From NCBI GenBank assembly GCA_963674745.2, contig CAXXDV010000001.1:512001-576000 (forward strand): a DNA stretch of 64,000 bases, written 5' to 3'. The notes under the pieces are model-generated. The model was not told the DNA's origin and did no database searches. It was given only the letters and a program-made list of their open reading frames with translations. Source of the stretch: Desulfosudaceae bacterium. Its GTDB lineage: Bacteria > Desulfobacterota > Desulfobacteria > Desulfobacterales > Desulfosudaceae. Position numbers and translations under genes: made by a program. Positions 40,608-58,622 of the stretch are shown here, one piece after another (positions within the stretch are counted from its first letter, which is position 1; the number at the start of each line of letters is the position of its first letter).

Positions 40608-40629
40608 AGAGAGTGAATGATCACTCTCT
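40608..40629. promoter_or_regulatory. putative TetR operator
   Basis: agagagtga-atga-tcactctct; minus-strand TTGACA at ~40648-40653. Confidence 0.65.
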
Positions 40630-40699
40630 TTCATGCCTAACGTTTATTGTCAAGACAAAAATTTATACATCATAAAACATAGCTGATGAAAATGTTTGG

Positions 40700-40990
40700 A
40701 ACTCTTTACCTGGTTGCGCGCGCAGGGAGTTTATATTCCAGCCGACTGGGTTCTGTTACCCTCATGTGCTTTTTTCCCGTTGGCATTACACGCATCATGA
40801 CGCTTGATATCCGGCATTCGGTTTCTGAAGCAGGTATCGTCACCGTATGCATCGGCCTGGTTACCGCCAGTCCTTTCTCATCATCAGCTACAATTGAGAA
40901 TCTGTAACGGCAGGCCGATACGGCCCTGTCCGAAACCAGAAAAACAGCCGCAACCGCACTGCCGTGTTTCAGGCCGCTGATGATCTGCCG
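40700..40990 (+). pseudogene. degraded GGDEF domain remnant
   Basis: LVAR..., IVTVCIG, L*RQADTAL and, after a frameshift, SRNRTAVF. Confidence 0.5.
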
Positions 40991-41048
40991 AAAGAATGCA
41001 AATCCCTGCTGTTTGATATAGATATTGTAAGGGCTCTGAGATTTCCCC

Positions 41049-41103
41049 TTGACAGCCTGGCGCCAGTTATAATATATAATACGAAACGATATAGTATTGT
41101 ATT
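41049..41103 (+). promoter_or_regulatory. promoter with operator shared with 44062-44087
   Basis: TTGACA at 41049; aatacgaaac-gatata-gtattgtatt (41078-41103). Confidence 0.55.
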
Positions 41104-41182
41104 TAAACATTACTGGCGGTGGTGTTCGATACAACGGCATCAACACACCGGCAGAACTCTAATCTCAAGGGGTCGCATATCC

Positions 41183-43480
41183 ATGGCTGAAAAAAAAATT
41201 GTCCGCTCGGCATGCCGTATGTGTCACGGGGTCTGCCAGGTCCTGGTTCATATGGAGGGTGACCGGATCGTTAAAATCACCGGTGACAAAGACAGTCCCA
41301 CCAGCAGGGGATATATTTGCGAAAAAGGCCGGGCCTCGGCGGAACTTCTTTATCACCCGGATCGTATTCTTACCCCCCTGCGCCGGAGCGGAAAAAGGGG
41401 GGGGAACAAATGGGAACGAATCTCCTGGGATGAGGCCTATGATTCTTTGGCAGAAAACCTGAACCGTATTCGCAGGGAAAACGGACCGGAATATTTCGGT
41501 ATGCTGCAGGGTACAGGCCGGCCCTATACCGGCTTCACCCAGCGGTTCTGTAATGCCTTCGGCACACCCAACATGACGGGGGTGGCCCATATCTGTTATA
41601 TACCCCGGGTGCTGGCCAGCATGATAACCACCGGTCACAATATCCCTGTCTGCGATATATACGGTTTCGGCGGCGCTTACCCGGAATGTCTCATCTTATG
41701 GGGCTGTAACGTCACTGAAACCGGGGCTTCTGACGGCATGTGCGGGGGTATGGTGCAGCGCGCCATAAATCGTGCCCGTCATGTAATCGTGATCGATCCG
41801 CGCCGTATCCGTCCGGCGGCAAAGGCGGATCACTGGCTGCAGATACGCCCGGGCACGGACGGTGCCCTGGCACTGGCATTTCTAAATGTCATTATTACCG
41901 AAAATCTGTTTGATAAGGAGTTTGTAACCCGCTACACCAAGGGTTTTGACAGGCTTGTTGACCATATCAGGCAATACACACCGGATTGGGCATCGGAAAT
42001 TACACGCATCCCGCCCGAAACCATTCGAATGGTAGCCCGGCTTTACGCCGGCGCTTCATCCTCGGCCATACAATGGGGCAACGCACTGGATATGAGTCAC
42101 TGCAACTTTCAGACTGCCCGGTCGGTTCTGATCCTTTCGGCGATCAGCGGCCATCTTGACGCTCCCGGAGGTGATGTCTTCTGGGTGCCGCCGGAAGGGG
42201 TCAGGCTGAAGTCTCCTTTTGCCAACCCGTTATTCGCGGGGAACCTCTTTCTGCCCTTGAACAAATACCGGCTTGGCTTAGACGGTACTGCTTTCCGGCC
42301 GGACAGGGCAAACTGGACCCTCTGGATTGAGGACCGGATGCTGGGTATGGCGGACCCAATCAGGCGGCTTTTCCTTTCCAGGATTGAAAGGCTGGTTGCC
42401 GACAAACCACTCGGCCCGGCGATCGAACTGATGAACCGGTTGAGACGGCCCCGTTTTCCGTTTACCCATATCATCCATCCGCCTGCATTCTGGCGTTCCA
42501 TCGTCAGCGGAAACCCCTATCGGCTCAAAGGCCTCTGGATTATGGGGTCCAACCCCCTGATTACCATGACCCATTCCGAAGATATCGAAAAAAGTCTGAA
42601 ACTGCTGAAGTACATTGTTGTTTCCGATTTTTTCATGACACCCACCGCCCAATACGCGGACCTGTTTCTGCCGTCTTCGACCTGGCTGGAACGTGAGGAT
42701 GTGGTCAATATGCATAAAAACTGGTGCGTGACCGCCCAAGTGCCGGTAACACGGGTCGGGGACACCAAAGACGATCGCGAGGTAATAATCCAGGTCGCGC
42801 GACGGCTGGGGTTGACCCGGGCTTTCCCCTGGGATAACTATCGTAGATTTCTGGATTGGATGCTGGCGGATGCCGGGATGAATTTTGAGCAGTTCAGTGA
42901 AACAGGCATCCTTACCGGGGACATGCGATACTGGAAGTATAAGGATGATGGATTCCCTACGCCTTCTGGTAAGTTTGAAATATACTCGAGAATGCTTAAA
43001 AGGCAGGGCGTTTCTCCGCTACCGGTGTATCGGGAACCGCCACACTCTCCGCAGGCATCGCCGGAGGTGGCGTCAGATTATCCCTTTATCCTGATCGGCG
43101 GTACCAAAAACCGGTATTTCTTTCACAGTGAAGGACGCCAGATAAAATCCTTGAGAAAACGCAACCCTGACCCGCTTCTGGAAATACACCCCAAGACGGC
43201 TACAAAACTCGATATAGCAGATGGCGACTGGGTCTGGGTTGAAACACCGCGCGGTCGTATTAAAATGAAGGCCCTGCTGACGGAAAAACTGGCCGAGGAT
43301 GTTGTTTGCGCGCAGTATGGATGGTGGTTTCCGGAAACCGCATCGCCGGATTACAACTGGCAACGATCAAATGTAAACCGGTTGTTCGGAGAGACACAGT
43401 TTGATCCGGACACAGGCTCTGAATGCCTGAAAAGCGCCCTGTGCAAGGTTTATCCGGCCAGCCCGGACGGTTCTGATTGA
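41183..43480 (+). CDS. molybdopterin (bis-MGD) oxidoreductase catalytic subunit
   Basis: CRMCHGVC...CEKG Fe4S4 site, IDPR, RPGTD, GSNP, ADLFLP, C-terminal dinucleotide-binding domain; no Tat signal. Confidence 0.93.
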   Translation: MAEKKIVRSACRMCHGVCQVLVHMEGDRIVKITGDKDSPTSRGYICEKGRASAELLYHPDRILTPLRRSGKRGGNKWERISWDEAYDSLAENLNRIRRENGPEYFGMLQGTGRPYTGFTQRFCNAFGTPNMTGVAHICYIPRVLASMITTGHNIPVCDIYGFGGAYPECLILWGCNVTETGASDGMCGGMVQRAINRARHVIVIDPRRIRPAAKADHWLQIRPGTDGALALAFLNVIITENLFDKEFVTRYTKGFDRLVDHIRQYTPDWASEITRIPPETIRMVARLYAGASSSAIQWGNALDMSHCNFQTARSVLILSAISGHLDAPGGDVFWVPPEGVRLKSPFANPLFAGNLFLPLNKYRLGLDGTAFRPDRANWTLWIEDRMLGMADPIRRLFLSRIERLVADKPLGPAIELMNRLRRPRFPFTHIIHPPAFWRSIVSGNPYRLKGLWIMGSNPLITMTHSEDIEKSLKLLKYIVVSDFFMTPTAQYADLFLPSSTWLEREDVVNMHKNWCVTAQVPVTRVGDTKDDREVIIQVARRLGLTRAFPWDNYRRFLDWMLADAGMNFEQFSETGILTGDMRYWKYKDDGFPTPSGKFEIYSRMLKRQGVSPLPVYREPPHSPQASPEVASDYPFILIGGTKNRYFFHSEGRQIKSLRKRNPDPLLEIHPKTATKLDIADGDWVWVETPRGRIKMKALLTEKLAEDVVCAQYGWWFPETASPDYNWQRSNVNRLFGETQFDPDTGSECLKSALCKVYPASPDGSD

Positions 43481-43517
43481 GTCCGAATTGTTCGATACCG
43501 ACAGAAACGGGTTAAAG

Positions 43518-43796
43518 ATGCGATTTGATTATCATAGCCACAGGCACATGCAAACAAAGTTCATTGTTTTGCATCCTGAAAAATGTGAAGCCTGCGGAGA
43601 ATGTATCAAGGCTTGCCCGAATAATGTGATTGGCATGGTGGATATAAAAGTTCATAAACACGCGCATATTGATAACCCTGATTTATGCAAGGGATGCAGG
43701 AAATGCATCAAAGCCTGTCCAGATGGCGCCTTGACTGCGAAATTACAAAAGGGAAAAAGACGAAGCCCGAAATCAAGACAGAATCTCCATCATTGA
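43518..43796 (+). CDS. 2x[4Fe-4S] ferredoxin
   Basis: CEACGECIKACP, CKGCRKCIKACP. Confidence 0.85.
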   Translation: MRFDYHSHRHMQTKFIVLHPEKCEACGECIKACPNNVIGMVDIKVHKHAHIDNPDLCKGCRKCIKACPDGALTAKLQKGKRRSPKSRQNLHH

Positions 43797-44031
43797 AAAA
43801 CAGGCCTTACCGTGTATATCCGGTTTTCCACAGCCCATCCTGAATGAATCGGATTTGTTTGATACAGAAATTTCATAAAAACACATGAAATAACACGTAA
43901 AGGACAATATCCGAGTCCATGATATATATCTGCTGAACATTGTTTTAGGTCCAATTATCACCCCCCCCATAATTTAAATATCTTAAATAACAATAATTTA
44001 TACAAAAATAAACCGCGCTAACATTTTTTTG

Positions 44032-44087
44032 TTGACATCTATTTCCGGCATGATACTATATAATACAAAACAGTATAGTTCAGTATT
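44032..44087 (+). promoter_or_regulatory. promoter with operator shared with 41078-41103
   Basis: TTGACA at 44032; aatacaaaac-agtata-gttcagtatt (44062-44087). Confidence 0.55.
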
Positions 44088-44110
44088 AAATAAAAAATTT
44101 CAAGGAGGTA

Positions 44111-45295
44111 ATGATGAGCAGAGGCAAAATAGCAATTGTCGGAATCGGAGAGGTGCCCACCCGGATCATGCCGGAACGTACCCGGTGGGACATTCTTTAT
44201 GATGTCTGCATGCAGGCGGTACGGGACTCCGGCCTGGACAAGAATGACATCGAGGCGGTCATCAATGTTGCGCCGCAGGCGCAGCCCAAACTGGCTGCAG
44301 AACTGTCCTTCGGTAAACTGCCGGAAGAACTCGGCTTGAAGGGGTGCCGGGATACCAGTGTCTGCAATGCGGGCGGCGCCAGCACCAGCAACTGCATCCG
44401 GCTGGCCGAGCAGTATATCAATACCGGCGTGGCCAAAGCCGTATTAATTCCCCACGTAACCGTTCATTCCACCATTCCTATAGAAGATCAGATCAATTTT
44501 TTTGCCAAAGCCGGGGTGGACATGCAATGGGAGTATCCCTTCGGCACCACCTACAACATTCTCATGGGCATGATGGCCAACCGTTACATGCATGAAACCG
44601 GGGCTAAACCGGAAGACATGGCCTCTGTCGTCACCGCTTTGCGCAGCTGGGCGTCCAGGGATCCCAACTCCTTTTTTTATCAGAAAAAGGTCCCCACGCC
44701 GGAAATGGTGTTGGAATCCTCTTTATTGAATACGCCGCTTCACAAAAGAGAGAGCAACATTCTCTGCGACGGCGGCAGCGCCATGGTGATTGTTTCCGCT
44801 GAAGACGCGGCAACAATGAACAAGCCTGTGGCCTGCAAGATGGGCGAATCGGTTCGGTACTTCAGCGGCACACCGGTGCTGCGTGATTTTCACAAGGTGG
44901 CCGAGGGACTGATGATGACCGGCCTGGAAGCCCTGGAGGAAGCGGGTGTAACCAAGGATGACATTGACCTCTGGAATATCTACATGGCCTATCCCATGAA
45001 TCATCCCATCATGGCCGAGGCGCTGGGGGTGGCCCCCATAGGAGAAGGAGCCAAGTATTTCGCGGAAGGCAGAATGTCGTTCGGCGGCGATATACCCTGG
45101 TCCACCATCGGTGACGCCCCGGGGCGGGGCCACACCGGCTCCGGCGTCAGCACGGCCATGTACGTGGAAACTGCCAGGCAGCTGATGGGCAAGGCGGGAG
45201 AAAGACAGGTCAAGGACTGCCGTTACGTATTTCAGAACACCGCCGGCGGTTCAGGCTTTAACAATATCGCAACCGTTTGGGGAAAGGAGATATAA
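44111..45295 (+). CDS. SCP-x-type thiolase-fold protein (Ltp2-like)
   Basis: AIVGIGE, CDGGSA, GRGH, QLMGKAGERQV; NAGGAS lacks the nucleophilic Cys. Confidence 0.88.
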   Translation: MMSRGKIAIVGIGEVPTRIMPERTRWDILYDVCMQAVRDSGLDKNDIEAVINVAPQAQPKLAAELSFGKLPEELGLKGCRDTSVCNAGGASTSNCIRLAEQYINTGVAKAVLIPHVTVHSTIPIEDQINFFAKAGVDMQWEYPFGTTYNILMGMMANRYMHETGAKPEDMASVVTALRSWASRDPNSFFYQKKVPTPEMVLESSLLNTPLHKRESNILCDGGSAMVIVSAEDAATMNKPVACKMGESVRYFSGTPVLRDFHKVAEGLMMTGLEALEEAGVTKDDIDLWNIYMAYPMNHPIMAEALGVAPIGEGAKYFAEGRMSFGGDIPWSTIGDAPGRGHTGSGVSTAMYVETARQLMGKAGERQVKDCRYVFQNTAGGSGFNNIATVWGKEI

Positions 45296-45297
45296 TT

Positions 45298-45720
45298 ATG
45301 GATATTCAATTTGATATGACCCGGCCGCTGCCTGAGACACAACCCTGGTCTGAAAAATTCTGGGAAGGCGCCAGAGAAGGCAAGTTGCTTGTCCAGCACT
45401 GTAAGGACTGTAACGTCAACATATTTTATCCGCGGAAAGTCTGCCCGGACTGCTGGTCGGAAAACCTGGACTGGATCGAGTCCAGCGGTAAAGCCAGGGT
45501 GTACATGTTTTCAACCGCTTACGACATGGTGGAACCCAAGTTCATGGAAGACCTGCCCTACACGGTGGCGTACGTCGACCTGGAAGAAGGGGTCCGCATG
45601 ATGACCCGCATTGTGGAATGTGACCCGGAAGACATCCATATCGACATGGATATGGAAGTGGTTTTCCACAAATTGAACGACGATTATTATCTGCCGTATT
45701 TCAAACCGGTCAATAAATAA
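45298..45720 (+). CDS. DUF35 Zn-ribbon/OB-fold protein
   Basis: FWEG..GKL.VQHCKDC..YPR..CPDC; PY.VAYVDLEEG. Confidence 0.92.
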   Translation: MDIQFDMTRPLPETQPWSEKFWEGAREGKLLVQHCKDCNVNIFYPRKVCPDCWSENLDWIESSGKARVYMFSTAYDMVEPKFMEDLPYTVAYVDLEEGVRMMTRIVECDPEDIHIDMDMEVVFHKLNDDYYLPYFKPVNK

Positions 45721-45730
45721 GGAGACCGTT

Positions 45731-46555
45731 ATGGGTGCTTATAAAACCATTCTATATGAAGTCGCCGGTCCGGTCTGCAGGATCACCATGAACCGTCCGG
45801 ACAAGCGCAACGCCATTGACCGCCAGATGGCTGAAGAGCTCCTGGATGCGTTCCGCCGGGTGAGAGACATCCCGGAGGTCGGCGTTGTCGTGTTTGGCGG
45901 CGCCGGTAAATCCTTTTGTACCGGCGGCGATCTTTCCATCTTTCCCTCTCTTTCCGAACATGCCAATTCCCTGAACTGGCTGGCCCATGACGGCCTGGAC
46001 ATCCAGCGCGCCATCACCAGCTGCGAGAAAGTCGTGGTCGGTAAGATCAGCGGACATTGCCTGGCCGGCGGCCTGGAACTGGCCCTGGCCTGTGACCTGC
46101 TTTATGCCAGTGCTTCCGCAAAAATCGGCACCACGGAAATCAACATGGGCATTCTTCCCGGATGGGGCGGCACCGCCAGGATCGTCAGGAGCCTGCCCGT
46201 TTTCAGGGCCAGGGAAATTATATACAGCGGCCGGAAAGACTACACCGCCGGTGAGATGTACGAGATGGGTCTGCTGACAAGGGTTTTCCCGGATGATGAG
46301 TTTGAGGACAAGTTCGAGCAGGTCGTTGCCAACCTCAGCATGAAAAAACCCGTCGCGCTGCGCATGGCCAAAGAGGTCATGGCCAAATCCGAAGAGTGCG
46401 GCAGCCTGGAGACAGCCCTGGCCATGGAACGGAATGCCATCCAGTGGCTGATCTATTCGCCTGATATCCAGCAGATCATGGACGGTTTTCGGCAGGACCC
46501 GGATCAGTTGACAAAAATCCAGAAGCAGATGAACAAGGCCACGGATATCAAATAA
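45731..46555 (+). CDS. enoyl-CoA hydratase/isomerase
   Basis: FCTGGD, AGGLELALACD, EINMGILPGWGG. Confidence 0.92.
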   Translation: MGAYKTILYEVAGPVCRITMNRPDKRNAIDRQMAEELLDAFRRVRDIPEVGVVVFGGAGKSFCTGGDLSIFPSLSEHANSLNWLAHDGLDIQRAITSCEKVVVGKISGHCLAGGLELALACDLLYASASAKIGTTEINMGILPGWGGTARIVRSLPVFRAREIIYSGRKDYTAGEMYEMGLLTRVFPDDEFEDKFEQVVANLSMKKPVALRMAKEVMAKSEECGSLETALAMERNAIQWLIYSPDIQQIMDGFRQDPDQLTKIQKQMNKATDIK

Positions 46556-46568
46556 CAGGAGTAAAAAC

Positions 46569-47747
46569 ATGGATTTTGGATTTACAAAAGAGCAGGAGAT
46601 GATTCGAAAGGAAGCCACCCGGTTCTGCAAAAAAGAGCTTAACAAAGAATATGTCGGATGGATGGACGAAAATGTCGATTTCCCGCCGGACGAACTCTGG
46701 GCCAAATTCGTTGACCTGGGCGTTTTCAAAGCGAACCTGCCAAAAGAATACGGCGGAGATCAAATCGGTATGGTCGATGGCATGATCCTCTATGAGCAAT
46801 TGTGCAAGGCGTCCATGTCAGTGGCGCTGGCGCTGGGTACGACCATTGGTTTCGGCACCCGCTTTATTGCCGAACTGGGCACCAAAGCGCAGAAAGATGA
46901 GTACCTCCCGCTGATCGGCGAAGGACAGCTGAAAACCTGCATGGCTTTGACCGAACCGGCCGGCGGAACCGATATCCTGGGCGCCCTGTCAACCACCGCA
47001 GAAGAAAAAGAAGGCCGGTGGGTGTTAAACGGTGAAAAGGTCTTTATCACCGGCGCTCATGCGTCAGACTACATGATCACCATCTGCCGCACGGAAAAGG
47101 ACGCCAAACCGAGCGAATCGCTGTCCACGTTTATGGTCCCGGCCAATTCAAAAGGGATCACCATCAGCCGTATTCCCAAGATAAGCTGCCACCACTGTGA
47201 TTCCGTGGGCATTACTTTCAGTAACGTGGAAATTCCCAGGGAAAACATCCTGGGAACCCGCGGCAACGCCTGGTACGAGATGCTGGCGATTATCAACCCG
47301 GAACGTATCGGGTGCGCCATGATGGGCGTCGGCCTGATCGCGGCTGCCTATGAAGACGCGTTTGAATACGTGAAGCAGCGGCATGCTTTTGGCGGCCCCA
47401 TCGGCCGGTTTCAGATCCTCCAGCACTACCTGGCGGACATATACGTCAACCTGGAAAACTCCCGGAACCTGACCTACAAGGCCGCCTGGCTTTGCGACAG
47501 CGGCCGGGACTATCACATGGAGGCGACCATGGCCAAGCTGGTGGCTTCCGAAGGGGCGCTCCATGCCGGGCGTTACGGCGCCGAGATCCTGGGCGGCTAC
47601 GGCATCTGCAGCGAATACCCCATGCAGCGCTATTTGAGAGATGCCTATCAGCTCCAGTTTTCCCCCATCTCCAACGAGATGAGCAAGAACATGATGATGC
47701 AGTTTCAGGGATTGCCCAAGTCATGGTCGGGAAGAGGAGCATTATAA
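46569..47747 (+). CDS. acyl-CoA dehydrogenase
   Basis: ALTEPAGGTD, NGEKVFIT, RHAFGGPIGRFQ, LGGYG. Confidence 0.93.
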   Translation: MDFGFTKEQEMIRKEATRFCKKELNKEYVGWMDENVDFPPDELWAKFVDLGVFKANLPKEYGGDQIGMVDGMILYEQLCKASMSVALALGTTIGFGTRFIAELGTKAQKDEYLPLIGEGQLKTCMALTEPAGGTDILGALSTTAEEKEGRWVLNGEKVFITGAHASDYMITICRTEKDAKPSESLSTFMVPANSKGITISRIPKISCHHCDSVGITFSNVEIPRENILGTRGNAWYEMLAIINPERIGCAMMGVGLIAAAYEDAFEYVKQRHAFGGPIGRFQILQHYLADIYVNLENSRNLTYKAAWLCDSGRDYHMEATMAKLVASEGALHAGRYGAEILGGYGICSEYPMQRYLRDAYQLQFSPISNEMSKNMMMQFQGLPKSWSGRGAL

Positions 47748-47780
47748 CGGACAAACCTCGGTAATGGAGGAAACCACGAA

Positions 47781-49364
47781 ATGTATAGACTCGGTGATAT
47801 TCCTTATTATGGCGCTGTTCATTTTTCAGACCGGGAAGCACTCGTTTTTGAAGGAGCGCGGCTGACTTATAAAGAGCTGAATGCCAGGGTAAACCGGCTG
47901 GCCAATGCACTGGTTGGCCTGGGCTGCAAAAAAGGCGATCATCTGGCTGTTCTGGCCGACAACTGCACAAAATATATGGAGATATACTTTGCCGCCGCCA
48001 AAATCGGTATAGCCGTCTGTCCCCAGAACTACCGCCTGTCCGACCAGGAACTGGAATATGTCATCAATCACGGTGAAGCGACAATTTTTATTGTCGGTGA
48101 CGGGTTTGAAGAAAAAACCCTGCAGCTGAAAAACAACCTGTCCCTGATCAGCACCTGGATCTCCCTGGATAACAGGCTGGAAGGGTTCCTGGATTACGAG
48201 GATCTGCTGCAGAACGCTTCCGAAGAAGAGCCCGATCCCGAACGGCATGATGTCAGGGAAAGCGATCTGGCCGTCCTGATGTACACCGGGGGGACAACCG
48301 GCCTGCCCAAGGGCGTCATGCTTTCCCACCGGAACATGATGACGGCCGCCATCACCAATGCCATGATCATTGCCACGGAATTCCCGTCCCTGGAACCGGG
48401 CACCCCTTTTTCCACCTGTTACGTGCTGCCGGTTTTTCATGTTTCTCTGTGGCCTGTCACGGCGGCGTTGATGGTGGGCGGCAAGGTCGTCATTAATCGA
48501 AAAATGGATCTGGGTGAAATTTTACGATTAATCCAGGATGAAAAATGCGCCCATATGAACCTGGTCCCCACGATTTACGGCTGGCTGATTGATTTCGCGG
48601 ACACGGATAAATTCGACCTGTCCAGCCTGATCTCACTTTCCTACGCGGGCAGCCCGTTTCCGCCGGAAGTCCTTAAAAAATGCATCAGGAAGTTCGGCAA
48701 TATTTTCTCCCAGGGTTACGGCGCCACGGAAACCGCCGGCGCGCCGATTACCGTATTCAGTTACCAGGAGCATGCCCTTGAAGGGCCGGAATCCAGGCGC
48801 CTGACCAGCGCCGGCAGAATCGCACCCTGTTCCAGAATAAAAATCGTGAACGAAACAGATCACCAGCTTGCAAACGGTGAGTGGGGAGAAATCTGCGTCA
48901 AGGGCGAACACATCATGACCGGGTACTGGAAAAATCCCGAAGCAACCGAAAGGGCCTTGAAAGACGGATGGTACCACACCGGTGATATGGGTTTTATGGA
49001 TGACGACGGATATGTCTTCATGACCGACCGCAAGACGGACATGATTATATCGGGCGGGGAAAATGTTTACCCCAAGGAAACAGAGGATGTCCTCTATGAA
49101 CACCCGGCGGTTGCCGAGTGCGCGGTTGTTTCCGCCCCTGATCCCAAATGGGGTGAAACCGTAGCAGCCGTCATCGTTCGTAAACCCGGTGAAAATATTT
49201 CCGGAAAGGAAATTATCGATTTCTGCAAAAAGCGGCTGGCAGGATATAAGTGCCCCAGAATTGTTGAATTCCGGGATGATTTACCCAAATCCATTATCGG
49301 GAAAATATTAAAAAAGGATATCAAGAAACAATTCTGGGAAGGAAAAGAGCGGAAGATCGGATAA
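47781..49364 (+). CDS. acyl-CoA synthetase
   Basis: YTGGTTGLPKG, QGYGATE, TGD, ISGGENVYP. Confidence 0.94.
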   Translation: MYRLGDIPYYGAVHFSDREALVFEGARLTYKELNARVNRLANALVGLGCKKGDHLAVLADNCTKYMEIYFAAAKIGIAVCPQNYRLSDQELEYVINHGEATIFIVGDGFEEKTLQLKNNLSLISTWISLDNRLEGFLDYEDLLQNASEEEPDPERHDVRESDLAVLMYTGGTTGLPKGVMLSHRNMMTAAITNAMIIATEFPSLEPGTPFSTCYVLPVFHVSLWPVTAALMVGGKVVINRKMDLGEILRLIQDEKCAHMNLVPTIYGWLIDFADTDKFDLSSLISLSYAGSPFPPEVLKKCIRKFGNIFSQGYGATETAGAPITVFSYQEHALEGPESRRLTSAGRIAPCSRIKIVNETDHQLANGEWGEICVKGEHIMTGYWKNPEATERALKDGWYHTGDMGFMDDDGYVFMTDRKTDMIISGGENVYPKETEDVLYEHPAVAECAVVSAPDPKWGETVAAVIVRKPGENISGKEIIDFCKKRLAGYKCPRIVEFRDDLPKSIIGKILKKDIKKQFWEGKERKIG

Positions 49365-49405
49365 AACGAAAGGCCATCCAACATTTTCACACAAGGAGAC
49401 AGCAC

Positions 49406-50431
49406 ATGAGTCAAGCGTTTGAAAAAGACAATTATTTCAAGATAGACCCGGAAACGCATTTGATCGGTGATATTGACGCGGTTAATCACTTTCCGGGTGT
49501 TCAAATGTGGTGGAAGGCGATAGAGAGCATCAGCCGGCCCATGTTCACGGGTTGCCCGCCGCATATGGTAGCGACCTACCTGGAGGGTATGGAGGAGTGG
49601 GAGGTCGTCAAAAGCGCCGACCCGGCAAACATTATCCGGGCAATGGATAAATACGGTGTTGATATTGCCTGTCTGCTGCCGGAATCCATGATGGATACCA
49701 CCGGTTACAGCAGCCGCTGGTGTACCAACGGTGAAATGGCGAAGGTTGTGGAAACCAACCCGGACCGGTTTATGTATCAGCCCAATTTATCCCCCATAAA
49801 ATTCAAGGGAGTAAACAACACAATCTGGGAACTGGAATACTGGGTCAAAGAGAAGGGCGCCAAAATATTCAAATTCTACGCCCCGGAAGACACCTACATC
49901 AACGACCCCGACCTCTGGCCGTTTTATAAAAAAGCCGAGGAACTGGACATTGTCCTGGATATCCATACCGGTTTTTCCTGGGTGCCGCCGGGCAAGAGCA
50001 AATATGCGCTGCCGATTCTCATTGACGATGTGGCCAGGGATTTTCCAGGGCTGAAAATCAACGCTTTTCATATGGGTTATCCCTATTGTGATGATTTGAA
50101 CATGGTCTCCATGGGCCATCCCAATGTCTACGTCTGTCTCAGTCTTCTTGTACCGTGGGCTGTGACGGCACCCCGCAAATTCGCCCGGATTCTGGGGGAA
50201 GCCATGCGCTGGGTGGGACCGGACAAGATTATCTGGGGTACGGACTACGCCGGGTTCAGCGTTCAGATAAAAGGTGCGGTCCAGGGCTTGAGAGATTTCC
50301 AGATTCCGGAGGACATGCAGGAAGGATACGGCTATCCCCCGATCACGGACGACGACCGGGCCAAAATATTCGGCGGCAACCTGGGCAGGCTGCTGGGCAT
50401 TGATACCACTAAAAGACGAATCAATAATTAA
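49406..50431 (+). CDS. amidohydrolase_2 family protein
   Basis: IHTG, FHMGYP, WGTDY, IFGGN. Confidence 0.88.
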   Translation: MSQAFEKDNYFKIDPETHLIGDIDAVNHFPGVQMWWKAIESISRPMFTGCPPHMVATYLEGMEEWEVVKSADPANIIRAMDKYGVDIACLLPESMMDTTGYSSRWCTNGEMAKVVETNPDRFMYQPNLSPIKFKGVNNTIWELEYWVKEKGAKIFKFYAPEDTYINDPDLWPFYKKAEELDIVLDIHTGFSWVPPGKSKYALPILIDDVARDFPGLKINAFHMGYPYCDDLNMVSMGHPNVYVCLSLLVPWAVTAPRKFARILGEAMRWVGPDKIIWGTDYAGFSVQIKGAVQGLRDFQIPEDMQEGYGYPPITDDDRAKIFGGNLGRLLGIDTTKRRINN

Positions 50432-50469
50432 GGAAACTTTATACATTATATATTTAACAGGAGGATATT

Positions 50470-51876
50470 ATGAGTTATGACGCTTTATTTGAACCGATTC
50501 AGATCGGCGATATCGAGTTAAAAAATCGGATCGCCATGGCACCCATGAATATGGGCTATACCGGTCCCAACGGTTATCACAGCGATCAGGGTACTGCCTG
50601 GTATGCCATGAGGGCGCGGGGCGGGTTCGGTCTGATTATTACCGAGTGTGTGGTCATGAACCCCCACCGGTGGGGGGGACAGGAGTGCTTAAACCCTTCT
50701 CTGCTGATCGATGAGCGGTATTACCGCTTTCACAGCGAGCTGACAGAAATACTTCACCATTTTTCCGGCTGCAAGGTCTGCATCCAGTTAAGCCCCGGGT
50801 GGGGAAGGCAAGGGCATCCTCATGCGGAATCAAGGGACTGTCCGGCAGGGGCGCCTTCAGCCATCCCCATGGAAACGGACTTGCGCAACCTGAACAAGGG
50901 CTGGGAGACCCAGATCAGGCGGTTGGCCCGGGAAGCCGGCGGTAAGGAAATGGAAGGTATTGTCCCTGACTTTACCCAGGTAAGCCAGATGAATGAAGAA
51001 GAGTACGCCGGATTCAAGACCTGGGCCCTGGAAATGATCAAAGGTATAGCCCCTGAAATGGTTCACGTTATTTGCGGCGATACCCCCCGGGAAATGACCA
51101 TAGAAGAAATCGTCGATCTTGAAGACCGATTCGCGGTGCAGGCCCAGGCCGCTTACAAGCTGGGTTACGACGCCCTGGAAATTCACGCGCCTCACGGCTA
51201 TCTGCTGCACCAGTTTCTGTCCCCGCGTTCCAACCACCGGCACGATGCCTACGGCGGAAGCATTGAGAACAGGGCCCGGTTTCTGACCAATATCATCACC
51301 AAGACACGAGAAAAAATCGGCCCGGAAAAAGCCCTTGGCGTTCGGCTTTCCGGTGACGAATTAATGCCAGGCGGCATTGAACATGAAGAAGTCAAACAGA
51401 TCGTAGCGCTGTGCAAAGACGCCGGGGGCAATTTTCTGAATGTCTCTCAGGGTTCCTATGAAAATCCGGCAGCCGCGTTTGCACCGGACGGGGAAGACGA
51501 ATTCACCCGCTGGGCACCGGGATTCAAAGAAGCTTCGGGCGGACTGCCGGTAATTACACCGAACTTTATCAATCCTGAGACCGCTGAAAAAGCGATCACT
51601 TCCGGTAAAACAGACATTGTCTCCCTGGGGCGCCAGGCCATTGCCGATCCTTTCTGGCCGGTAAAAGTAAAAGAAGGGCGTGTTGACGATATTGTGAAAT
51701 GTGCCAGGTGTCAGCGGTGCTACATGGACTTGATGACGGCCAACTGGGCCCGCTGCTCGGTCAATCCCATTGCCGGCAAAGAAAAATATTACACGGAACT
51801 GTTTCTGGATACGCCGAAACTGGCCAAGAAAGTGGACCGGTTTAAGTCCAGAATATCAGGTCTTCCCCAGATATAA
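50470..51876 (+). CDS. NADH:flavin oxidoreductase (OYE family) with Fe-S motif
   Basis: KNRIAMAPM, EIHAPHGYLLHQFLSP, CARCQRC...CSVNP. Confidence 0.92.
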   Translation: MSYDALFEPIQIGDIELKNRIAMAPMNMGYTGPNGYHSDQGTAWYAMRARGGFGLIITECVVMNPHRWGGQECLNPSLLIDERYYRFHSELTEILHHFSGCKVCIQLSPGWGRQGHPHAESRDCPAGAPSAIPMETDLRNLNKGWETQIRRLAREAGGKEMEGIVPDFTQVSQMNEEEYAGFKTWALEMIKGIAPEMVHVICGDTPREMTIEEIVDLEDRFAVQAQAAYKLGYDALEIHAPHGYLLHQFLSPRSNHRHDAYGGSIENRARFLTNIITKTREKIGPEKALGVRLSGDELMPGGIEHEEVKQIVALCKDAGGNFLNVSQGSYENPAAAFAPDGEDEFTRWAPGFKEASGGLPVITPNFINPETAEKAITSGKTDIVSLGRQAIADPFWPVKVKEGRVDDIVKCARCQRCYMDLMTANWARCSVNPIAGKEKYYTELFLDTPKLAKKVDRFKSRISGLPQI

Positions 51877-52075
51877 TAAACGTTTGCCGAAAGCAAAACC
51901 GGAAAATGCCCGGGCCCTGAGCGAAGTCGTCGTCAGATGGGGTTATTATTAATTCCATGATAGGGATATCACATTCCTCAGGTTCAGCGGAAGAAAAGTT
52001 ATGGAGTATCGGCGGAGAAAATCAGGTCTTGCTGTATTTAGACCGTAAGGAAGATATAAGCCGATAGGAGGTGTT

Positions 52076-53449
52076 ATGAAGAACACGCATATACTAATGA
52101 TTGGGAAATATTTTTTATTCATATCAGCCACTCTGTTTTTTTTCGCCGTAGCCGCCAGCGCCATGGAAAATGACATTGGCATGACAGCACAGGTCATCAT
52201 AGAGGAAAGCGTTGCCGCTTTGTGGCTCGGCAATTCTTTCAGCCCGCAATTGGAAAAGGAACAGCAGTCTTTGAGAAATATTCTTGAAAACCGTTCAATA
52301 ACCGGGGCTGAACTTGAGAGAATTGTCGCCAGGACAATGCTTTCCATATTAAATTCACAAAAAACCAGCAGATATAATTTACGTGAAATGTACAAAGGCG
52401 TCGAGGAACTGCTTGCGCCTTATATGAAAAGGGGGGAATTAAGAAAGATTGTCTGGCACCAGTTATCATCACAGTTCGGGGAAGGGAGACAATTTAATGT
52501 TAAGGTGGGAACTCTTGCTCCGGTTGGTACCCCATGGCTTGTTCTCCCCGAGAGACTGGTCGCTGAAATACAAGAATTAAGCGGCAATAAGGTTATCTTT
52601 AAGATTTATTCAGGCGGTGTCATGGGCGAGGATGTTGATGTCTTAAGAAAAATGGATATGGGCCAACTCGACGGCTGCGGTTGCACGGCGATGGGAATAT
52701 TAAAAGCAGCTCCCGAGGCGTACGTTTTTCTTCTGCCTGGGCTGTTCCGTAATTATGAAGAAATCGATTTTGTCCTAAATAAGTTCAGAAAAATGATAGA
52801 CAGGACTTTTGAGGAAAAAGGATATATGCTTGCCGCCCTGGTTGACACCGGCAATTTTTATCTGTTTTCAAGATTCAAAACAGACAACCTGGCCGGGATA
52901 AAAAAAAACAAAACAATAACGACGTTTGGGGTCATTGAAACCGAATTGTTTGATGAACTCGGGATCCATGCCATCCCAATTTCGATACCAGAGATAATAC
53001 CGTCCTTAAACACGGGCATTGCTGATACCGTCGTAGCCCCGGCTTCATGGATGCTGGGGATGCAAGCTTATCAATACGTAAATTGCTTCATCAAGGAACC
53101 GTTGTTTTATTCACCCGCAGCCGTCATTGTAAGTGCCAAAATTAAGGACAAGTTGCAGAGAGATATCAATTTGTCGGAGACGGTTGCACATAACATAACG
53201 GAGCTGACCATTTTTGAATTCATCTCTCTTGAAAAAGATTGGAAGGCCCAGACAAGGCATTATGAGAAAAAATGTCTTGAAGCCTTTATTTACAAGGTGG
53301 GGATGAGACCCTTGGTGCTTCCCCCGGAAGACAGGGCGGTTATTGAACAGGCCGGGAAAAAGGTCTGGGAAAAACTCGCCGGCGACGTTTGTCCCCGGGA
53401 ACTCCTGAATGATATCCTGCGGGCTCTTGAGGAATATCGACGGAATTAA
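52076..53449 (+). CDS. TRAP DctP-family substrate-binding protein with N-terminal extension
   Basis: GTLAPVGTPW, YSGGVMGED, LDGCGCT. Confidence 0.85.
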   Translation: MKNTHILMIGKYFLFISATLFFFAVAASAMENDIGMTAQVIIEESVAALWLGNSFSPQLEKEQQSLRNILENRSITGAELERIVARTMLSILNSQKTSRYNLREMYKGVEELLAPYMKRGELRKIVWHQLSSQFGEGRQFNVKVGTLAPVGTPWLVLPERLVAEIQELSGNKVIFKIYSGGVMGEDVDVLRKMDMGQLDGCGCTAMGILKAAPEAYVFLLPGLFRNYEEIDFVLNKFRKMIDRTFEEKGYMLAALVDTGNFYLFSRFKTDNLAGIKKNKTITTFGVIETELFDELGIHAIPISIPEIIPSLNTGIADTVVAPASWMLGMQAYQYVNCFIKEPLFYSPAAVIVSAKIKDKLQRDINLSETVAHNITELTIFEFISLEKDWKAQTRHYEKKCLEAFIYKVGMRPLVLPPEDRAVIEQAGKKVWEKLAGDVCPRELLNDILRALEEYRRN

Positions 53450-53623
53450 CATAAAAGGAATCAAGTGCAAAACAACCTAAGCCTTTCCCTATATAAGGAT
53501 GAAAATATGAGCGATGAAAGAACTTATAAAAGCACATGCCGGATTTGCCACCGCGGATGCGGGGTGCTGATGCATGTCGAGGACAGGGTTGTCAAAATCA
53601 AAGGCGACACAAATTCTCCCCTG

Positions 53624-54135
53624 TTCGACGACATTAGAAAGAGAGAGATGAGAGCACTAACCTTTGGATTTTTTTTGGTGTTTATACTCACCACATGCGC
53701 ATACGCGGATGACACCAAAGACTTAAATCAGATGGGGATTCCGGGGGGAATGGCTGGTTGTTTTGGCACCGTTCAGTCTGAGGTTCTGCAGGTCTTTTTG
53801 GCCGAAGACAATGGTGCGCGATTCAGGGCCTATCAAGTGAAATGGAAGGGCCAGGACATAATAGTCTCAGATATGTTTGGCACAACTGACTTCAAAGAGG
53901 GTGATATCATCACGTTCATGGCCCAAAACATCGAAGTCCCGGCTAACGGCAAAAAACTGAAGATGCTTCAGTTCATGATCATGGACACGAGCGCTTTTGC
54001 TCCGGAACAGTAGGGCGTCGAACAACACGTTGGTAAGGGACCGCAATGGGCGGCCGGTTTCGGCTCTTGCCAACTGCTTTTATTAACGAGTTTTTGCGGG
54101 TGGCCCGTTCCCCTTGCGCCCCCAAACCTTGAACG
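53624..54135 (+). mobile_element. integron gene cassette with attC (~54017-54135)
   Basis: G|TTCGACG at the left junction is the exact reverse complement of R'' CGTCGAAC after the stop; attC-like hairpin ends in G at 54135. Confidence 0.8.
53648..54013 (+). CDS. exported hypothetical protein (cassette ORF, 121 aa)
   Basis: signal peptide MRALTFGFFLVFILTTCAYA; purine-rich RBS. Confidence 0.75.
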   Translation: MRALTFGFFLVFILTTCAYADDTKDLNQMGIPGGMAGCFGTVQSEVLQVFLAEDNGARFRAYQVKWKGQDIIVSDMFGTTDFKEGDIITFMAQNIEVPANGKKLKMLQFMIMDTSAFAPEQ

Positions 54136-54230
54136 AACAAAGGCCGCCTGTGCCCCAAGGGAATGGTCAGGATTGAACACCTTTATCATCCGGACACCGC
54201 TGCGAAATATGGTATTCAAAAGGAGAACAA

Positions 54231-55064
54231 ATGACCCTATTCAATCTGTCCGGCAGAGTAGCCCTGGTTACGGGGGCTTCACGAGGATTGGGCCGGGCAA
54301 TATCGGTTGCCCTGGCCGAAGCCGGGGCTGATGTCGTCCTGACGGACATACTTGTTGAAGACGCCTTTGATTCACGGGAAATGTCCGGGTACAGCCCGCT
54401 GGCGGCTTTTTTTTCGCAGACGGACGGGGTGTATACGAAATCAACCGCTGAAGATATCCGGTTATCGGGACGGCGTAGCATGGCGCTGCGGATGGATGTC
54501 ACTTCGCCGGATGAAATACGGGATGTCATCGCACGCGTCAAGGATGAACTCGGCCCGGTCGACATCCTGGTAAACAACGCCGTTATCATGGACAATTTCG
54601 GCCTGATCGAAAAGCAGCGTCCCGACTTGTGGGAGCGGGATCTCAAGGTGAACCTCACCGGAGCTTTTAATTGTATTCAGGCGGTTTGGCCGGACATGAA
54701 AGAACGCCAATGGGGCCGGATAGTAAATATCTCCTCATTCGTGGCCATTATGGGGGCTTTTGCCCAGCCCAGTTACGGGGCGTCAAAGGCTGGACTTCTC
54801 GGCCTTACCAGGTCGATGGCCCTGGAGGGTGCCCGCAGTGGCATAACCGCCAACGCGATTCTGCCCGGGTTTATCCAAACCGAAGCGGTCAAACTGCATG
54901 ATCCGGGGAAACTGGAGCGGATAACGGCCCGCTGCCCTATGCAACGCCTGGGCCATCCTGAAGAAGTGGCATCCCTGGCGGTATTCCTGGCATCTGATGC
55001 GGCAGCCTATATTACCGGTGCCGCTATTCCTGTGACAGGAGGAATGGACCTGTTTCATTTTTGA
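54231..55064 (+). CDS. short-chain dehydrogenase/reductase (FabG-like)
   Basis: TGASRGLG, NNA, YGASK, PGFIQT. Confidence 0.93.
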   Translation: MTLFNLSGRVALVTGASRGLGRAISVALAEAGADVVLTDILVEDAFDSREMSGYSPLAAFFSQTDGVYTKSTAEDIRLSGRRSMALRMDVTSPDEIRDVIARVKDELGPVDILVNNAVIMDNFGLIEKQRPDLWERDLKVNLTGAFNCIQAVWPDMKERQWGRIVNISSFVAIMGAFAQPSYGASKAGLLGLTRSMALEGARSGITANAILPGFIQTEAVKLHDPGKLERITARCPMQRLGHPEEVASLAVFLASDAAAYITGAAIPVTGGMDLFHF

Positions 55065-55245
55065 ACGAGAAGCATACACATATAGCGCAAAAAAGTTGCC
55101 GAGAATAATCGTCTGTCTCATCGTTATGCTGTCAGAAGACACAAAGGGTTCTGCGTTCCTCGTTGACACCCCATCATCGCATGGATATAGTGCATTGTGA
55201 TAAAACAGGAAGAAAATTCCGTATACAGATCCTCTGAACCATGAA

Positions 55246-56106
55246 TTGAAGGCAGAACGCGTGTCGCAGAAAAAACTGATGAAAATATCGGAATTAGGTG
55301 AAAAGACCGGGGCAGCAGCTTCGACCATACGGTTTTATGTCAAGCAGGGCCTCCTTCGCGAACCGATCCGAAAAGGCAGGACCGTCGCCTATTACTCTCC
55401 CCTGCATGTCGAGCAACTCAAATACATACTCGCCCTTAAAAAGAAGAACAAATTTACTTTACATGAGATAAAACAACGGGTTGCCGACAAATTCAAGGAC
55501 ACGCCGGATGATGATCCCGGAAGGCCGTTTATCGGAAAACAGGAAGAGATTATCAGGGCGTCCGTCGATCTTTTCCTCAATAAAGGTTATCATGACACAA
55601 CTATAACCGATATTGTTGATAACGCCGGTATCGGCCGGGGCACATTTTACGCTTATTTTGCCAACAAGGAGGAACTTTTCTGGGAATGCGCCGATAAACT
55701 GTTCAAGGATCTTGACACGCATTTTAATATTATAAAAAACGAAGGCGATGTGCTTTCCCGGTTGAAACGCCGGGCTTACGAGTTTCTGTTAACCTTTCCC
55801 ACCTTGATCAATCTGATCAACATTATCAGGGGGGCGGCAGTAAGCGATTCTGAAATATTTAAGGAAAAGCTTAATATAATGATGCGGCAATTGGTGGCAC
55901 CGATTGTCAATGACCTTGATATCGGTATGCGAAATAATGAAATCAGAGATACTGACAGTACCGTATTAGGACATATCTTAATGGGTGCGGCGGAATATAT
56001 CTCATATTATGCTTATGAACTCGAATTCAACCTGGACAATGACCGGTTTCTGGCCTTGTTCCAGGAAGGATGGGACATGATCTATTATGGCGCCCAAAAA
56101 GATTAA
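55246..56106 (+). CDS. MerR HTH-TetR fusion regulator
   Basis: TIRFYVKQGLL; FLNKGYHDTT...GRGTFYAYF. Confidence 0.9.
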   Translation: MKAERVSQKKLMKISELGEKTGAAASTIRFYVKQGLLREPIRKGRTVAYYSPLHVEQLKYILALKKKNKFTLHEIKQRVADKFKDTPDDDPGRPFIGKQEEIIRASVDLFLNKGYHDTTITDIVDNAGIGRGTFYAYFANKEELFWECADKLFKDLDTHFNIIKNEGDVLSRLKRRAYEFLLTFPTLINLINIIRGAAVSDSEIFKEKLNIMMRQLVAPIVNDLDIGMRNNEIRDTDSTVLGHILMGAAEYISYYAYELEFNLDNDRFLALFQEGWDMIYYGAQKD

Positions 56107-56980
56107 CACACGAAATTCAAAAACCTATTACCGGATTTCCGAGATCTCGCGTATAAGCGGGGTGCCGTCCCAGACGATTCACTATTACGTCCGGGAAGGG
56201 CTGCTGCTGCCGCCGGTCAAGACCAGCAAAACCATGGCGTATTACAGCGAAGATCACCTGGAAAGGCTGTATTTCATAAAAAAACAACAGATCGAGTCAA
56301 AACAGCGCTTAAAGGAGATCAAGCAAAGACTGGCCGATGACTTGCCGGCTGCTGCTCCGGAAGACCATAGGGACAAAGAGGGGCCGTTACCTTTCGCGCA
56401 ACAAAAAGAAACAATCCTTCAAACCGCCATTAATCTGTTCACGCAAAAGGGATACGCGGAAACCAGCATTACCGATATTGTTAATACAGCCGGTGTCGGG
56501 CGCGGAACGTATTACCAGCTTTTCAAAGACAAGGAGGATTTGCTGCTGGAATGCGCGGACCGTGTTTTCTTCGAGCTTTACAGTCATGTCTGGGAAAAAT
56601 TGCAAAATGAAACAGATATGATGAAACGGTTACAGATTCGATTTGAAGCGTATATAAAGAGTCACCCCAGGTGGCGGGACATGATGGATATTATTAAAAG
56701 CCTGGCCAGCACAAATAACCAAAAAGGCGTCCAGAAACACAGGGAAATCCTGCAGCAGATAACCCGGCCCATTGCCCGGGAAATTGACAGGGCAGCCCGA
56801 CAGCAGAAAATCCCGGGGGGCAACGACACCTTCGGCACTATGGCGGCATACATGCTTCTGGGTGCCAGCGACTATTGTGCCCGGCTGCATTTTGAACAGG
56901 GTCATGACATAAACCTGTTGTTTGATCATATCACCCAGTTGGTGTTTGAAGGGATCCGATATAGATCCCGATCTTCCTGA
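56087..56980 (+). CDS. MerR HTH-TetR fusion regulator (paralog)
   Basis: TIHYYVREGLL; FTQKGYAETS...GRGTYYQLF. Confidence 0.9.
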   Translation: MAPKKINTRNSKTYYRISEISRISGVPSQTIHYYVREGLLLPPVKTSKTMAYYSEDHLERLYFIKKQQIESKQRLKEIKQRLADDLPAAAPEDHRDKEGPLPFAQQKETILQTAINLFTQKGYAETSITDIVNTAGVGRGTYYQLFKDKEDLLLECADRVFFELYSHVWEKLQNETDMMKRLQIRFEAYIKSHPRWRDMMDIIKSLASTNNQKGVQKHREILQQITRPIAREIDRAARQQKIPGGNDTFGTMAAYMLLGASDYCARLHFEQGHDINLLFDHITQLVFEGIRYRSRSS

Positions 56981-57130
56981 GCCGACCCCCTAAAACGGAT
57001 CCGGTTTTTATGATAAAAAAGGCTGGCAACTACCGAAAGGAGTTAGGGGATATGGCAAAGAAAACTGCCGTGGAGAAGGTCGACCGGTTGCTTCGTCAGG
57101 TCGAAATACTTCATCGATGGGTAACGCTAC
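56978..57130 (+). mobile_element. possible IS3-family left-end remnant
   Basis: TGAGCCGACCCCCTAAAACGGATCC resembles IS3-family IRL; RBS then MAKK...LLRQVEIL, like the start of OrfA; no further transposase. Confidence 0.4.
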
Positions 57131-57227
57131 ATGGTTTCTGTTCTGCTTTATTCGTTGTGATGCCAGCTATCTTTTTTTTATGGCCTTGTCCGGAAGGTCA
57201 CGCTCATGAATATTTCCTGTCTGTTCT

Positions 57228-58622
57228 TTATGGATGCGTTTTCCTGTATTCCTCGAGCGCTTTGGTCATGTCGCGAACCAGGTCAGCCGGGAAAACCTTG
57301 CCGGACAGCTTCTGCTGAACGGCTTTGCCTGCCGCTTCAAGCTTTTTCAGGTCTTCGGGAGGCAGCGTGATGGCCTTCATGCCGCACCTGGTCTCGAATG
57401 CCTTCAGGCTTTTTTCTTCAAAGATTCTGATCTGGCGCCTCCACCCCTTCTCCAGGGCGATAATTTCAGCAATGACAATTTCCTGAATGTTATAGGCGAA
57501 CACCGCTGATATGCCGAGCTGTTGCTGGATTCTGCCGATCGTGCTGGCTTTGGAAACCACGACTCCCGGTGAATAGACCAACGGTGGTATGATGTAATAG
57601 TTCATGAATTGATAGGCCTGCATACCCAGCACCCATGCCGGGGGCGCCAGGTTCAGGTCGGTCTTGCCGGTGTTAAGTGACGCGACAACATCGGGGACCG
57701 GAACCGGTGTGGCATTTATCCCCAGTTCCTCATAGAGGGGTGCTTCGATAATACCAAACCATGTCATTGCTTCTTGTTTGGCAATATCCGCCAGGCCGGG
57801 TGTTTTGTACTTTGAAAATAAATAGAAAAAGCCGGTGTCAAATAGTGCCCACAGGGTATAACCGTTCTTTTCAAACCCTTCATCCAGCTGCTTTCGGAAT
57901 TTTTCAAAGATATAATCGACTTCATCATAGTTATTAAACAAACCGGGCAGCAGCAGGGCCGATGCTTCCGGGCAGCTCGCCAGCACACCCAGGGCGGTGC
58001 AGCCGCAGGCGTCGAGCTGCCCGGCATCCATTTTATCGAGGATTTCCTCATCATCCCCCATAACACCGCCCCCGTAAATTTTGATCTGAATTTTTCTTTC
58101 GCTTAATTTTTCTATTTCCGGAAAGGCAATCGTTTCCGGCACACTGAGCCAGGGTGTACCCGGCGGCGCCAGGGTGCCGACTTTATATAATACGGGGTCG
58201 TCTTTGGTGATCACGGATGAAAGCGCCCGCCACAATACGGCTTTTATCGTTTTCCAGTCCAGGTGCGGGAGAAGAAGATCGTTGAAGCGGTCCGGAAAAT
58301 TCACTACGGCATACCGTGATGTTTTATGGCGCTCCAACAAAGACAGGAACATCGTCTCCAGCATGCCTTCCAGCTGAACCTCATTAACGGCACCGGTAGC
58401 CAGCATTGTTTTCAAAAACTGTTGCCGCTGCAGTAACCCCGGATCGGTTTCCCCGCCCACCCACATCGTTTCAAGACTTTCCCGCATTATGTCTTGAAAT
58501 GATTTGATGTTGTCATCAGCGCCGGTGACGCCAGGCGGCAGTCCGATGGTGATGATCATGAAAACAGAACAAAACAACCATCTCTTCATAACAATCCCGG
58601 TTCTGATATCAAGTAAGGCCAT
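57228..58622 (-). CDS. TRAP DctP-family substrate-binding protein with N-terminal extension
   Basis: GTLAPPGTPW, YGGGVMGDD, LDACGCT. Confidence 0.85.
   Translation of the reverse strand: MALLDIRTGIVMKRWLFCSVFMIITIGLPPGVTGADDNIKSFQDIMRESLETMWVGGETDPGLLQRQQFLKTMLATGAVNEVQLEGMLETMFLSLLERHKTSRYAVVNFPDRFNDLLLPHLDWKTIKAVLWRALSSVITKDDPVLYKVGTLAPPGTPWLSVPETIAFPEIEKLSERKIQIKIYGGGVMGDDEEILDKMDAGQLDACGCTALGVLASCPEASALLLPGLFNNYDEVDYIFEKFRKQLDEGFEKNGYTLWALFDTGFFYLFSKYKTPGLADIAKQEAMTWFGIIEAPLYEELGINATPVPVPDVVASLNTGKTDLNLAPPAWVLGMQAYQFMNYYIIPPLVYSPGVVVSKASTIGRIQQQLGISAVFAYNIQEIVIAEIIALEKGWRRQIRIFEEKSLKAFETRCGMKAITLPPEDLKKLEAAGKAVQQKLSGKVFPADLVRDMTKALEEYRKTHP

Follow-up and report, generated by a model that had tools for sequence, protein, structure and literature searches.

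A 512-bp integron cassette interrupts coding sequence for the Fe4S4 domain of a molybdopterin oxidoreductase in the genome of a member of the Desulfosudaceae. The cassette occupies positions 53624-54135 (plus strand) of the window, by which we mean the whole stretch of 64,000 nucleotides that was analysed (C1:512001-576000), and its status as a true integron cassette was confirmed. The analysis establishes its identity, its exact boundaries, its family link to the arrays that lie beside integron integrase (intI) genes elsewhere in the genome, and the precise rejoining of the host reading frame when the 512 bases are taken out. We consider it likely, with a probability of roughly 85%, that a circular cassette belonging to the genome's own pool was inserted into the molybdopterin oxidoreductase coding sequence by an integron integrase (IntI).

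The boundaries of the cassette, whose first bases are the TT that follows the left crossover G and whose last base is the right crossover G, were taken from the alignment of its attC family (a slash marks the crossover in the junctions written here). The cassette opens with TTCGACG (53624-53630, plus strand), which represents the 3' part of the R' box in the circular cassette and can pair with CGTCGAA in the R'' (inverse core) box of the same cassette. That box, CGTCGAAC, lies at 54016-54023 (plus strand), in the position held by the xxxxxAAC boxes of array attC sites. Read with the G that precedes it, the cassette start is the reverse complement of the box, which comes right after the TAG stop codon (54011-54013) of the cassette gene; the complement is 8 nt long, and five of the six positions beyond GTT match. 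At the right end, homology of the repeat, about 120 nt long, stops at ...GAACG/AAC, at the same G as in the other family members. Boxes corresponding to R' and R'' are both present, the bases after the right G now being AA, derived from the target. Both crossovers fall after a G, and target bases are neither duplicated nor lost. The attC site (54014-54143, minus strand) has its proper end at G 54135, and 54136-54143 is target DNA; the site is about 125 nt long, and its folding bottom strand corresponds to the window's minus strand. Within 54123-54143, three of the last 13 nt of the attC depart from the family consensus, and a tandem GAAC-GAAC spans the right junction; chance, decay or the insertion event itself may account for these features. 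Base composition shows no step at the cassette borders. The cassette measures 512 bp, as against a spacing of 392-813 bp (median 536) in the genome's arrays. A search of the window with R1, a covariance model described below, gave no second attC or attC fragment (next best E = 0.8), and none of 31 matches to the integron integrase model TIGR02249 fell within C1:512001-576000. With neither a second attC nor an integrase in the window, the cassette is a lone one, of the kind called SALIN (single attC lacking integron-integrase).

The attC of the window belongs to a repeat family with ten other copies in the genome, 78-89% identical (eleven members in all). When these were aligned with their flanks, all ten lost homology at ...GACG/TT, and the same repeat with G/TT was also found in relatives from two other genera. 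A profile search of the genome recovered no copies of the family beyond those ten. The bottom strand folds into a long imperfect hairpin, with an energy of -28.6 kcal/mol in the circular form and -22.1 kcal/mol as it lies, compared with -21.4 to -31.8 kcal/mol for members of the family. All 8 bases of the R box are paired when the cassette is circular. The consensus structure has 31 pairs, of which the window copy breaks five: two through the AA of the target, and three in the L' arm and stem that are uncompensated on the L'' side. Covariation adds little, the family being too uniform (1 of the 31 pairs has a double change; covariation term +0.83), and the consensus fold has bulged positions, which may be counterparts of the canonical extrahelical G and T bases that set strand choice. 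A second lone attC of the same family was observed between two genes at C1:954254-954354; truncation on either side has left model positions 15-116, so that both R boxes are gone.

R1 was built from ten bottom-strand copies of the genome's own attC sites and is tuned to sites of about 130 nt. It matches the window attC with 126.5 bits (E = 1.4e-30), a match that arises by construction, as the model was built partly from the window's own copy; the independent support for the attC call is the family alignment together with the arrays. The initial annotation, made from the letters of the sequence, had called a cassette consisting of an ORF plus an attC, and this call is upheld by the family alignment, the R1 match from a genome-built model and the fold of the hairpin. 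Likewise, the opening TTCGACG that was said to pair, with its preceding G, with R'' is present where it was placed, the bottom strand does fold into an attC-like hairpin whose homology stops at the G at 54135, and the reported absence of an integrase from the window agrees with the TIGR02249 search.

The rest of the genome, to which the initial annotation had pointed as the place to look for intI, holds three integron integrase genes. They score 428.9, 415.7 and 414.7 bits, above the TIGR02249 cut-off of 265 bits, cover the full model in open frames, and lie at least 1.5 Mb from the cassette or on another contig. R1 was run without filters on five regions of 19.9 kb (99.5 kb in total), namely the surroundings of the intI genes and two further clusters. 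This gave 62 rows at E <= 0.01, four of which are opposite-strand echoes, leaving 58 distinct sites, 52 of them outside the R1 training set. The density of these regions (58 sites in 99.5 kb) contrasts with that of the window (one site in 64 kb), and a sixth array region is equally dense. Orientation of the sites is uniform within each region, and the intI-side arrays begin beside the gene and diverge from it. Members of the window's attC family are present, in the correct orientation, in all three arrays adjacent to intI.

The cassettes of these arrays follow the boundary rules that were applied to the cassette in the window. The box analysis retained 113 of 140 R1 rows, namely the full-length matches (E up to 6.6) to the dominant strand; the 27 rows dropped were opposite-strand echoes and short AT-rich partial matches. 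R' is GTT in 108 of the 113 sites and R'' is AAC in 109, the remainder being out of register. Among 98 adjacent pairs, the start of the cassette (the six bases after GTT, as reverse complement) agrees with its own R'' at five or more of six positions in 94, whereas in a control that compared R'' with the start of the next cassette such agreement was found in 5 of 97. All three attI-cassette junctions of the genome are G/TT. The array attC sites are about 130 nt long and fall into several sequence families, and the cassettes are about 540 bp long. Altogether the genome has three complete integrons, and in at least three more dense arrays no integrase scoring above the cut-off lies close by; the integron and array regions are C3:27900-38200, C1:2098500-2118400, C3:2329500-2349400, C1:2262000-2281900, C3:1826000-1845900 and C1:1495000-1514900. 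The genome probably carries some hundreds of cassettes in total; the genome-wide attC search scored only 150 of 3843 candidates.

Two further observations were made in the arrays. Four attC copies (C1:1504438, C1:2267232, C1:2269826 and C3:1834524) are identical over at least 40 nt upstream, indicating that one cassette is present four times in three array regions. A tyrosine-recombinase-like gene also occurs four times (C1:1739981-1740487, C1:2102784-2103290, C1:2282749-2283252 and C3:2332314-2332799). It consists of a 255-aa frame, a TAA and a 70-aa piece, scores about 86 bits against the integron integrase model, and in three of the four cases lies at the far end of a cassette array; it may be an element that targets arrays.

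The host of the cassette is a 5' remnant, about 59 codons long, of a molybdopterin oxidoreductase gene. Its first part (53507-53623, plus strand) begins with the ATG at 53507 and comprises codons 1-39, the last of which, CTG, ends at 53623; it contains three of the four cluster cysteines in a CxxCxxxC pattern and is 51% identical to the paralog at 41183. The second part, identified by alignment (54136-54234, plus strand), carries on in the same frame at 54136 with 20 homologous codons, which include the fourth cysteine and run through HLYHPD. Twelve unrelated codons follow, and the frame closes with a TGA overlapping the start codon (ATG) of the gene downstream, a short-chain dehydrogenase (SDR); homology to molybdopterin oxidoreductases thus ends near 54195, while the frame stops at 54232-54234. 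The paralog at 41183 is full-length (PF04879, PF00384 and PF01568), whereas the remnant lacks the molybdopterin-binding domains, and no close paralog of the remnant exists in the genome, the best being 51-53% identical in amino acid sequence.

In a tblastn search of the genome, the left half of the remnant aligned to the 41183 paralog up to C1:553299 and the right half from C1:553303, and the one codon between the two alignments pairs with codon 39. The rejoined halves align without a gap with five molybdopterin oxidoreductase N-termini (the 41183 paralog and four others), and the fourth cysteine is restored. Because the halves rejoin in this way, with nothing duplicated or lost, the 512 bases at 53624-54135 are an exact insertion. 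The earlier prediction that removing 53624-54135 would bring back the fourth Fe-S cysteine is therefore correct, with no residue gained or lost. The accompanying description of a cassette inside a chromosomal gene holds for the exact split of the coding sequence; the host, though, is only a 5' remnant. A connection between the 3' truncation of the host and IntI excision was considered and rejected: host-gene sequence continues for 60 nt beyond the right end of the attC, which is therefore not where a deletion begins.

The rejoined domain also bears on the idea that the cassette, instead of being a fresh insertion, is what survives of a decayed array, a CALIN with one attC left, and that its molybdopterin-oxidoreductase-like flanks are unrelated. 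Such a history would suit a genome that has several arrays without a nearby integrase and the truncated lone attC at C1:954254-954354. It is very improbable, however, given that the flanks rejoin gap-free into one Fe4S4 domain and that neither another attC nor a piece of one was found in the window.

The target of the insertion reads CTG/AAC, with TT/C on the cleaved bottom strand as against AA/C in the arrays. For secondary sites, Loot et al. (bioRxiv 10.1101/2022.09.11.507474) give the consensus GWT, from genome-wide mapping with IntI1, IntI2 and IntI3. Further published consensuses, quoted as GNT and GWTMW, keep the T as well. In the present G/AA, the G and the W fit GWT but the T is replaced by A, so that the site departs from both GWT and GNT; all in-register R' boxes of the genome's arrays are GTT. 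An off-consensus target, G/AAC, with crossovers after the G, had been proposed from the outset, and cassette boundaries and host alignment agree on it. The AAC codon stands at the Asn/Ser position of the conserved motif P-x-[NS]-x-G-x-x-C-x-K-G, and since paralogs share that position, AAC is most likely the original target rather than the product of a later mutation. Comparison of the left flank of the target with the left arms of the three attI sites showed no clear likeness beyond CTG/ in one of them.

A target that is neither GTT nor GWT could also mean that the 512 bp entered without IntI, by transposition or illegitimate recombination, or that they result from an assembly error; the tandem GAAC-GAAC across the right junction and the breaking of short-read contigs inside the attC could be read in the same way. 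We regard this as extremely improbable. Both ends match IntI crossover positions to the base, there is neither a target duplication nor a terminal inverted repeat beyond the attC boxes, and no transposase is present. As to the assembly, each junction lies inside single short-read contigs: in two runs from one sample, a contig covering 52000-54111 and another covering 54089-55600 each showed 0 differences, and the left junction was also bridged, again with 0 differences, by a 210-nt contig from a second sample.

Upstream of the remnant lies a gene for a DctP-type solute-binding protein (52076-53449, plus strand; PF03480), and downstream the SDR gene (54231-55064, plus strand; PF13561 and PF00106). 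In two genomes of the same genus the surroundings differ. In G001 the DctP ortholog abuts the SDR gene without any spacer, and in G002 (contig C18) it is an amidohydrolase gene that abuts the SDR gene. The SDR orthologs of both show 65% identity, and their ribosome-binding region is conserved as well: about 15 nt ahead of the SDR start are kept in all three genomes. A stretch of roughly 760 bases, 53450 to about 54212, lacks an equivalent in G001 and in G002 and is therefore specific to this genome. The cluster at 41-55 kb of the window is syntenic with contig C18 of G002, except that two genes are in swapped order and the DctP gene is found only here. Over 40964-51876, compared with 38000-57900 of that contig, a conserved catabolic cluster is seen, with genes for a molybdopterin oxidoreductase, a ferredoxin, a thiolase-like protein and others, 53-90% identical.

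Searches for an allele with the empty site, among 40 relatives, 12 other genomes of the family and the contigs of four sequencing runs, returned none. DNA searches of the 40 relatives gave no match to 53440-54012 or 54136-54216, and the 39-aa left half of the remnant found only paralogs in the 12 other genomes of the family (best 54%); in neither set does the host fragment have an ortholog at this position. The SDR protein had no relative in the collection of genome contigs. No joint skipping the cassette was seen in the contigs of the four runs, where rare variants are dropped. Conversely, none of the 40 relatives and 12 family genomes has the 512 bp as ancestral sequence, as an origin by insertion, put forward in the initial annotation, would predict.

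These comparisons are relevant to where the insertion took place. IntI might have inserted the cassette elsewhere, at another locus or in another genome and into a full-length molybdopterin oxidoreductase gene, and the fragment with its cassette might later have reached its place between DctP and SDR through ordinary recombination or through transfer. In both G001 (the DctP ortholog) and G002 (the amidohydrolase gene) a different gene stands immediately before the SDR gene, so the remnant may have arrived together with the cassette as a unit; the absence of a counterpart to 53450 through about 54212 in those genomes and of a close paralog of the fragment in its own genome (51-53% at best) is consistent with such a move. 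Even so, we think it unlikely. The fragment has a normal 57-nt leader and a ribosome-binding site after the DctP stop, its own stop overlaps the SDR start codon, as in a decayed resident gene, and the outer borders carry no mobile-element signature. Orthologs at the locus are only 61-65% identical, leaving room for many rearrangements there, which also counts against a later move.

The cassette gene (53648-54013, plus strand) encodes 121 amino acids and ends in a TAG stop 2 nt before R'', its reading direction pointing at the attC. Homologs and an AF2 model suggest a signal peptide followed by a six-stranded beta-barrel; the model has a pLDDT of 80, with the barrel confident. There are 23 homologs outside the genome, 49-78% identical and all unnamed, and the invariant columns of the family are all kept, so the gene looks intact. 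Neither the protein nor its homologs had a match in Pfam, atlas leads for the protein (DUF5666-like, OB-fold) all stayed below 0.9, and Foldseek against the PDB returned only weak OB-fold rows (best E = 0.008, TM about 0.35). No promoter-like site was found in 53450-54230. Having no promoter of its own and being transcribed co-directionally with its DctP and SDR neighbours, the cassette gene would depend for expression on read-through in the DctP/SDR operon. We also observed that the reading frame of the molybdopterin oxidoreductase fragment stays open across the 24-nt leader of the cassette and enters the cassette ORF in phase; this chimeric ORF (53465-54013), created by the insertion, was predicted as a single 182-aa product (P0002) with PF04879.

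The closest homolog for which DNA was at hand, 75% identical, lies on a metagenome contig (L056) between repeated attC-like elements. These elements, seen by eye at 1100-1700 of the contig, are of a shorter type and end in GTTAGGC; R1 missed them. The leader before the start codon of this homolog is similar to that of the cassette. On L056 the attC family that accompanies this gene is thus a different one, and the position of the gene between repeats of another type suggests that the gene family travels as cassettes. Elsewhere, R1 found no convincing attC at nine genome loci of homologs (four short partial rows, E 0.11-0.56) and no attC at 24 of 39 metagenome loci (seven rows, E 0.16-0.76), and distant homologs in metagenome-assembled genomes of the PVC group and others have no site of the R1 type. 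A 249-nt contig in a run from a different study (X4) corresponds to 53725-53973 of the window, with 8 differences to the cassette ORF, and the same run also holds an attC of the family with 11 differences.

Insertion by IntI, the reading we prefer, can be laid out in steps that follow the chemistry established for this enzyme. Cleavage just 5' of a C, which on the top strand means after the G, would occur in two bottom strands, that of the folded attC and that of the double-stranded target; exchange of one strand would follow, and replication would resolve the product. The expected outcome, target-G/TTCGACG...ORF...attC-G/AAC-target, would involve no duplication or loss of target bases. Catalysis would be attributed to IntI, for which there are three apparently intact genes, and the insertion itself would have taken place at the present locus, either before or after the 3' truncation of the host gene; these points are inferred from the sequence. 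After insertion, the R box would be unable to pair, as it has AA in place of TT. The loss of this pairing, together with the uncompensated changes in the L' arm, means that the cassette is probably trapped, and the changes in the L' arm and stem fit decay after the cassette stopped moving. The state of the site suggests that precise excision is now unlikely.

Complete single cassettes outside att sites have precedents. The aadB cassette was reportedly found at secondary sites on RSF1010/pIE723 and pRAY, by Recchia and Hall in 1995 and by Segal and Elisha in 1997. Like the cassette described here, those were complete, single and precisely inserted at a non-att position downstream of a host promoter. 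They were, however, resistance cassettes on plasmids, at GNT or GWTMW sites, whereas the present cassette has no assigned function and lies in chromosomal coding sequence at a GAA site. With regard to the donor pool, the closest comparison is the superintegron of Vibrio cholerae, a sedentary chromosomal integron with homogeneous attC repeats. The genome studied here resembles it in having large arrays, short cassettes and related attC sites, with cassette starts complementary to their own R'', but differs in having three integrases, at least six array regions, and attC sites of about 130 nt in several families. For the Vibrio cholerae superintegron, 179 cassettes are quoted by Loot et al. (bioRxiv 10.1101/2022.09.11.507474).

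Insertion of cassettes at genomic attG sites, and lone cassettes under the name SALIN, are already described in that work (Loot et al., bioRxiv 10.1101/2022.09.11.507474). As in those cases, the cassette stands alone, with one attC and neither an integrase nor a further att site in its vicinity; insertion is into double-stranded genomic DNA, with cleavage after G, and can disrupt genes; and expression depends on a host promoter. Unlike the 5'-GWT-3' given there for attG, the present target is G/AA; in addition, the integrases of this genome are distant from IntI1-3, the donor pool is its own sedentary arrays, and the host is a gene remnant. The cassette shows every cassette and SALIN feature for which a clear result was obtained, and among the features of insertion it departs only from the GWT/GNT target rule.

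The process is therefore a known one, already shown in the laboratory, where integron integrases have proved able to place cassettes almost anywhere in a genome. What sets this case apart is the off-consensus triplet and the target rebuilt to the exact base. Natural lone cassettes have been counted before, but few have a target that can be rebuilt to the base, and here both junctions, the donor attC family and candidate integrases can be read in one genome, outside the clinical Proteobacteria. The site and its attC offer a ready substrate pair for studying how far target choice is relaxed, and whether off-consensus insertion traps cassettes and feeds gene gain. We suggest, tentatively and with more doubt than confidence, that the integrases of this lineage can insert cassettes where only the crossover G is kept (G/AA), and that the resulting break of the R box locks the cassette in place. 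If so, the T of GWT/GNT would be dispensable in nature and possible genomic targets would be several times more numerous than assumed, and members of the mobile cassette pool could become fixed chromosomal genes by a route that allows no return.
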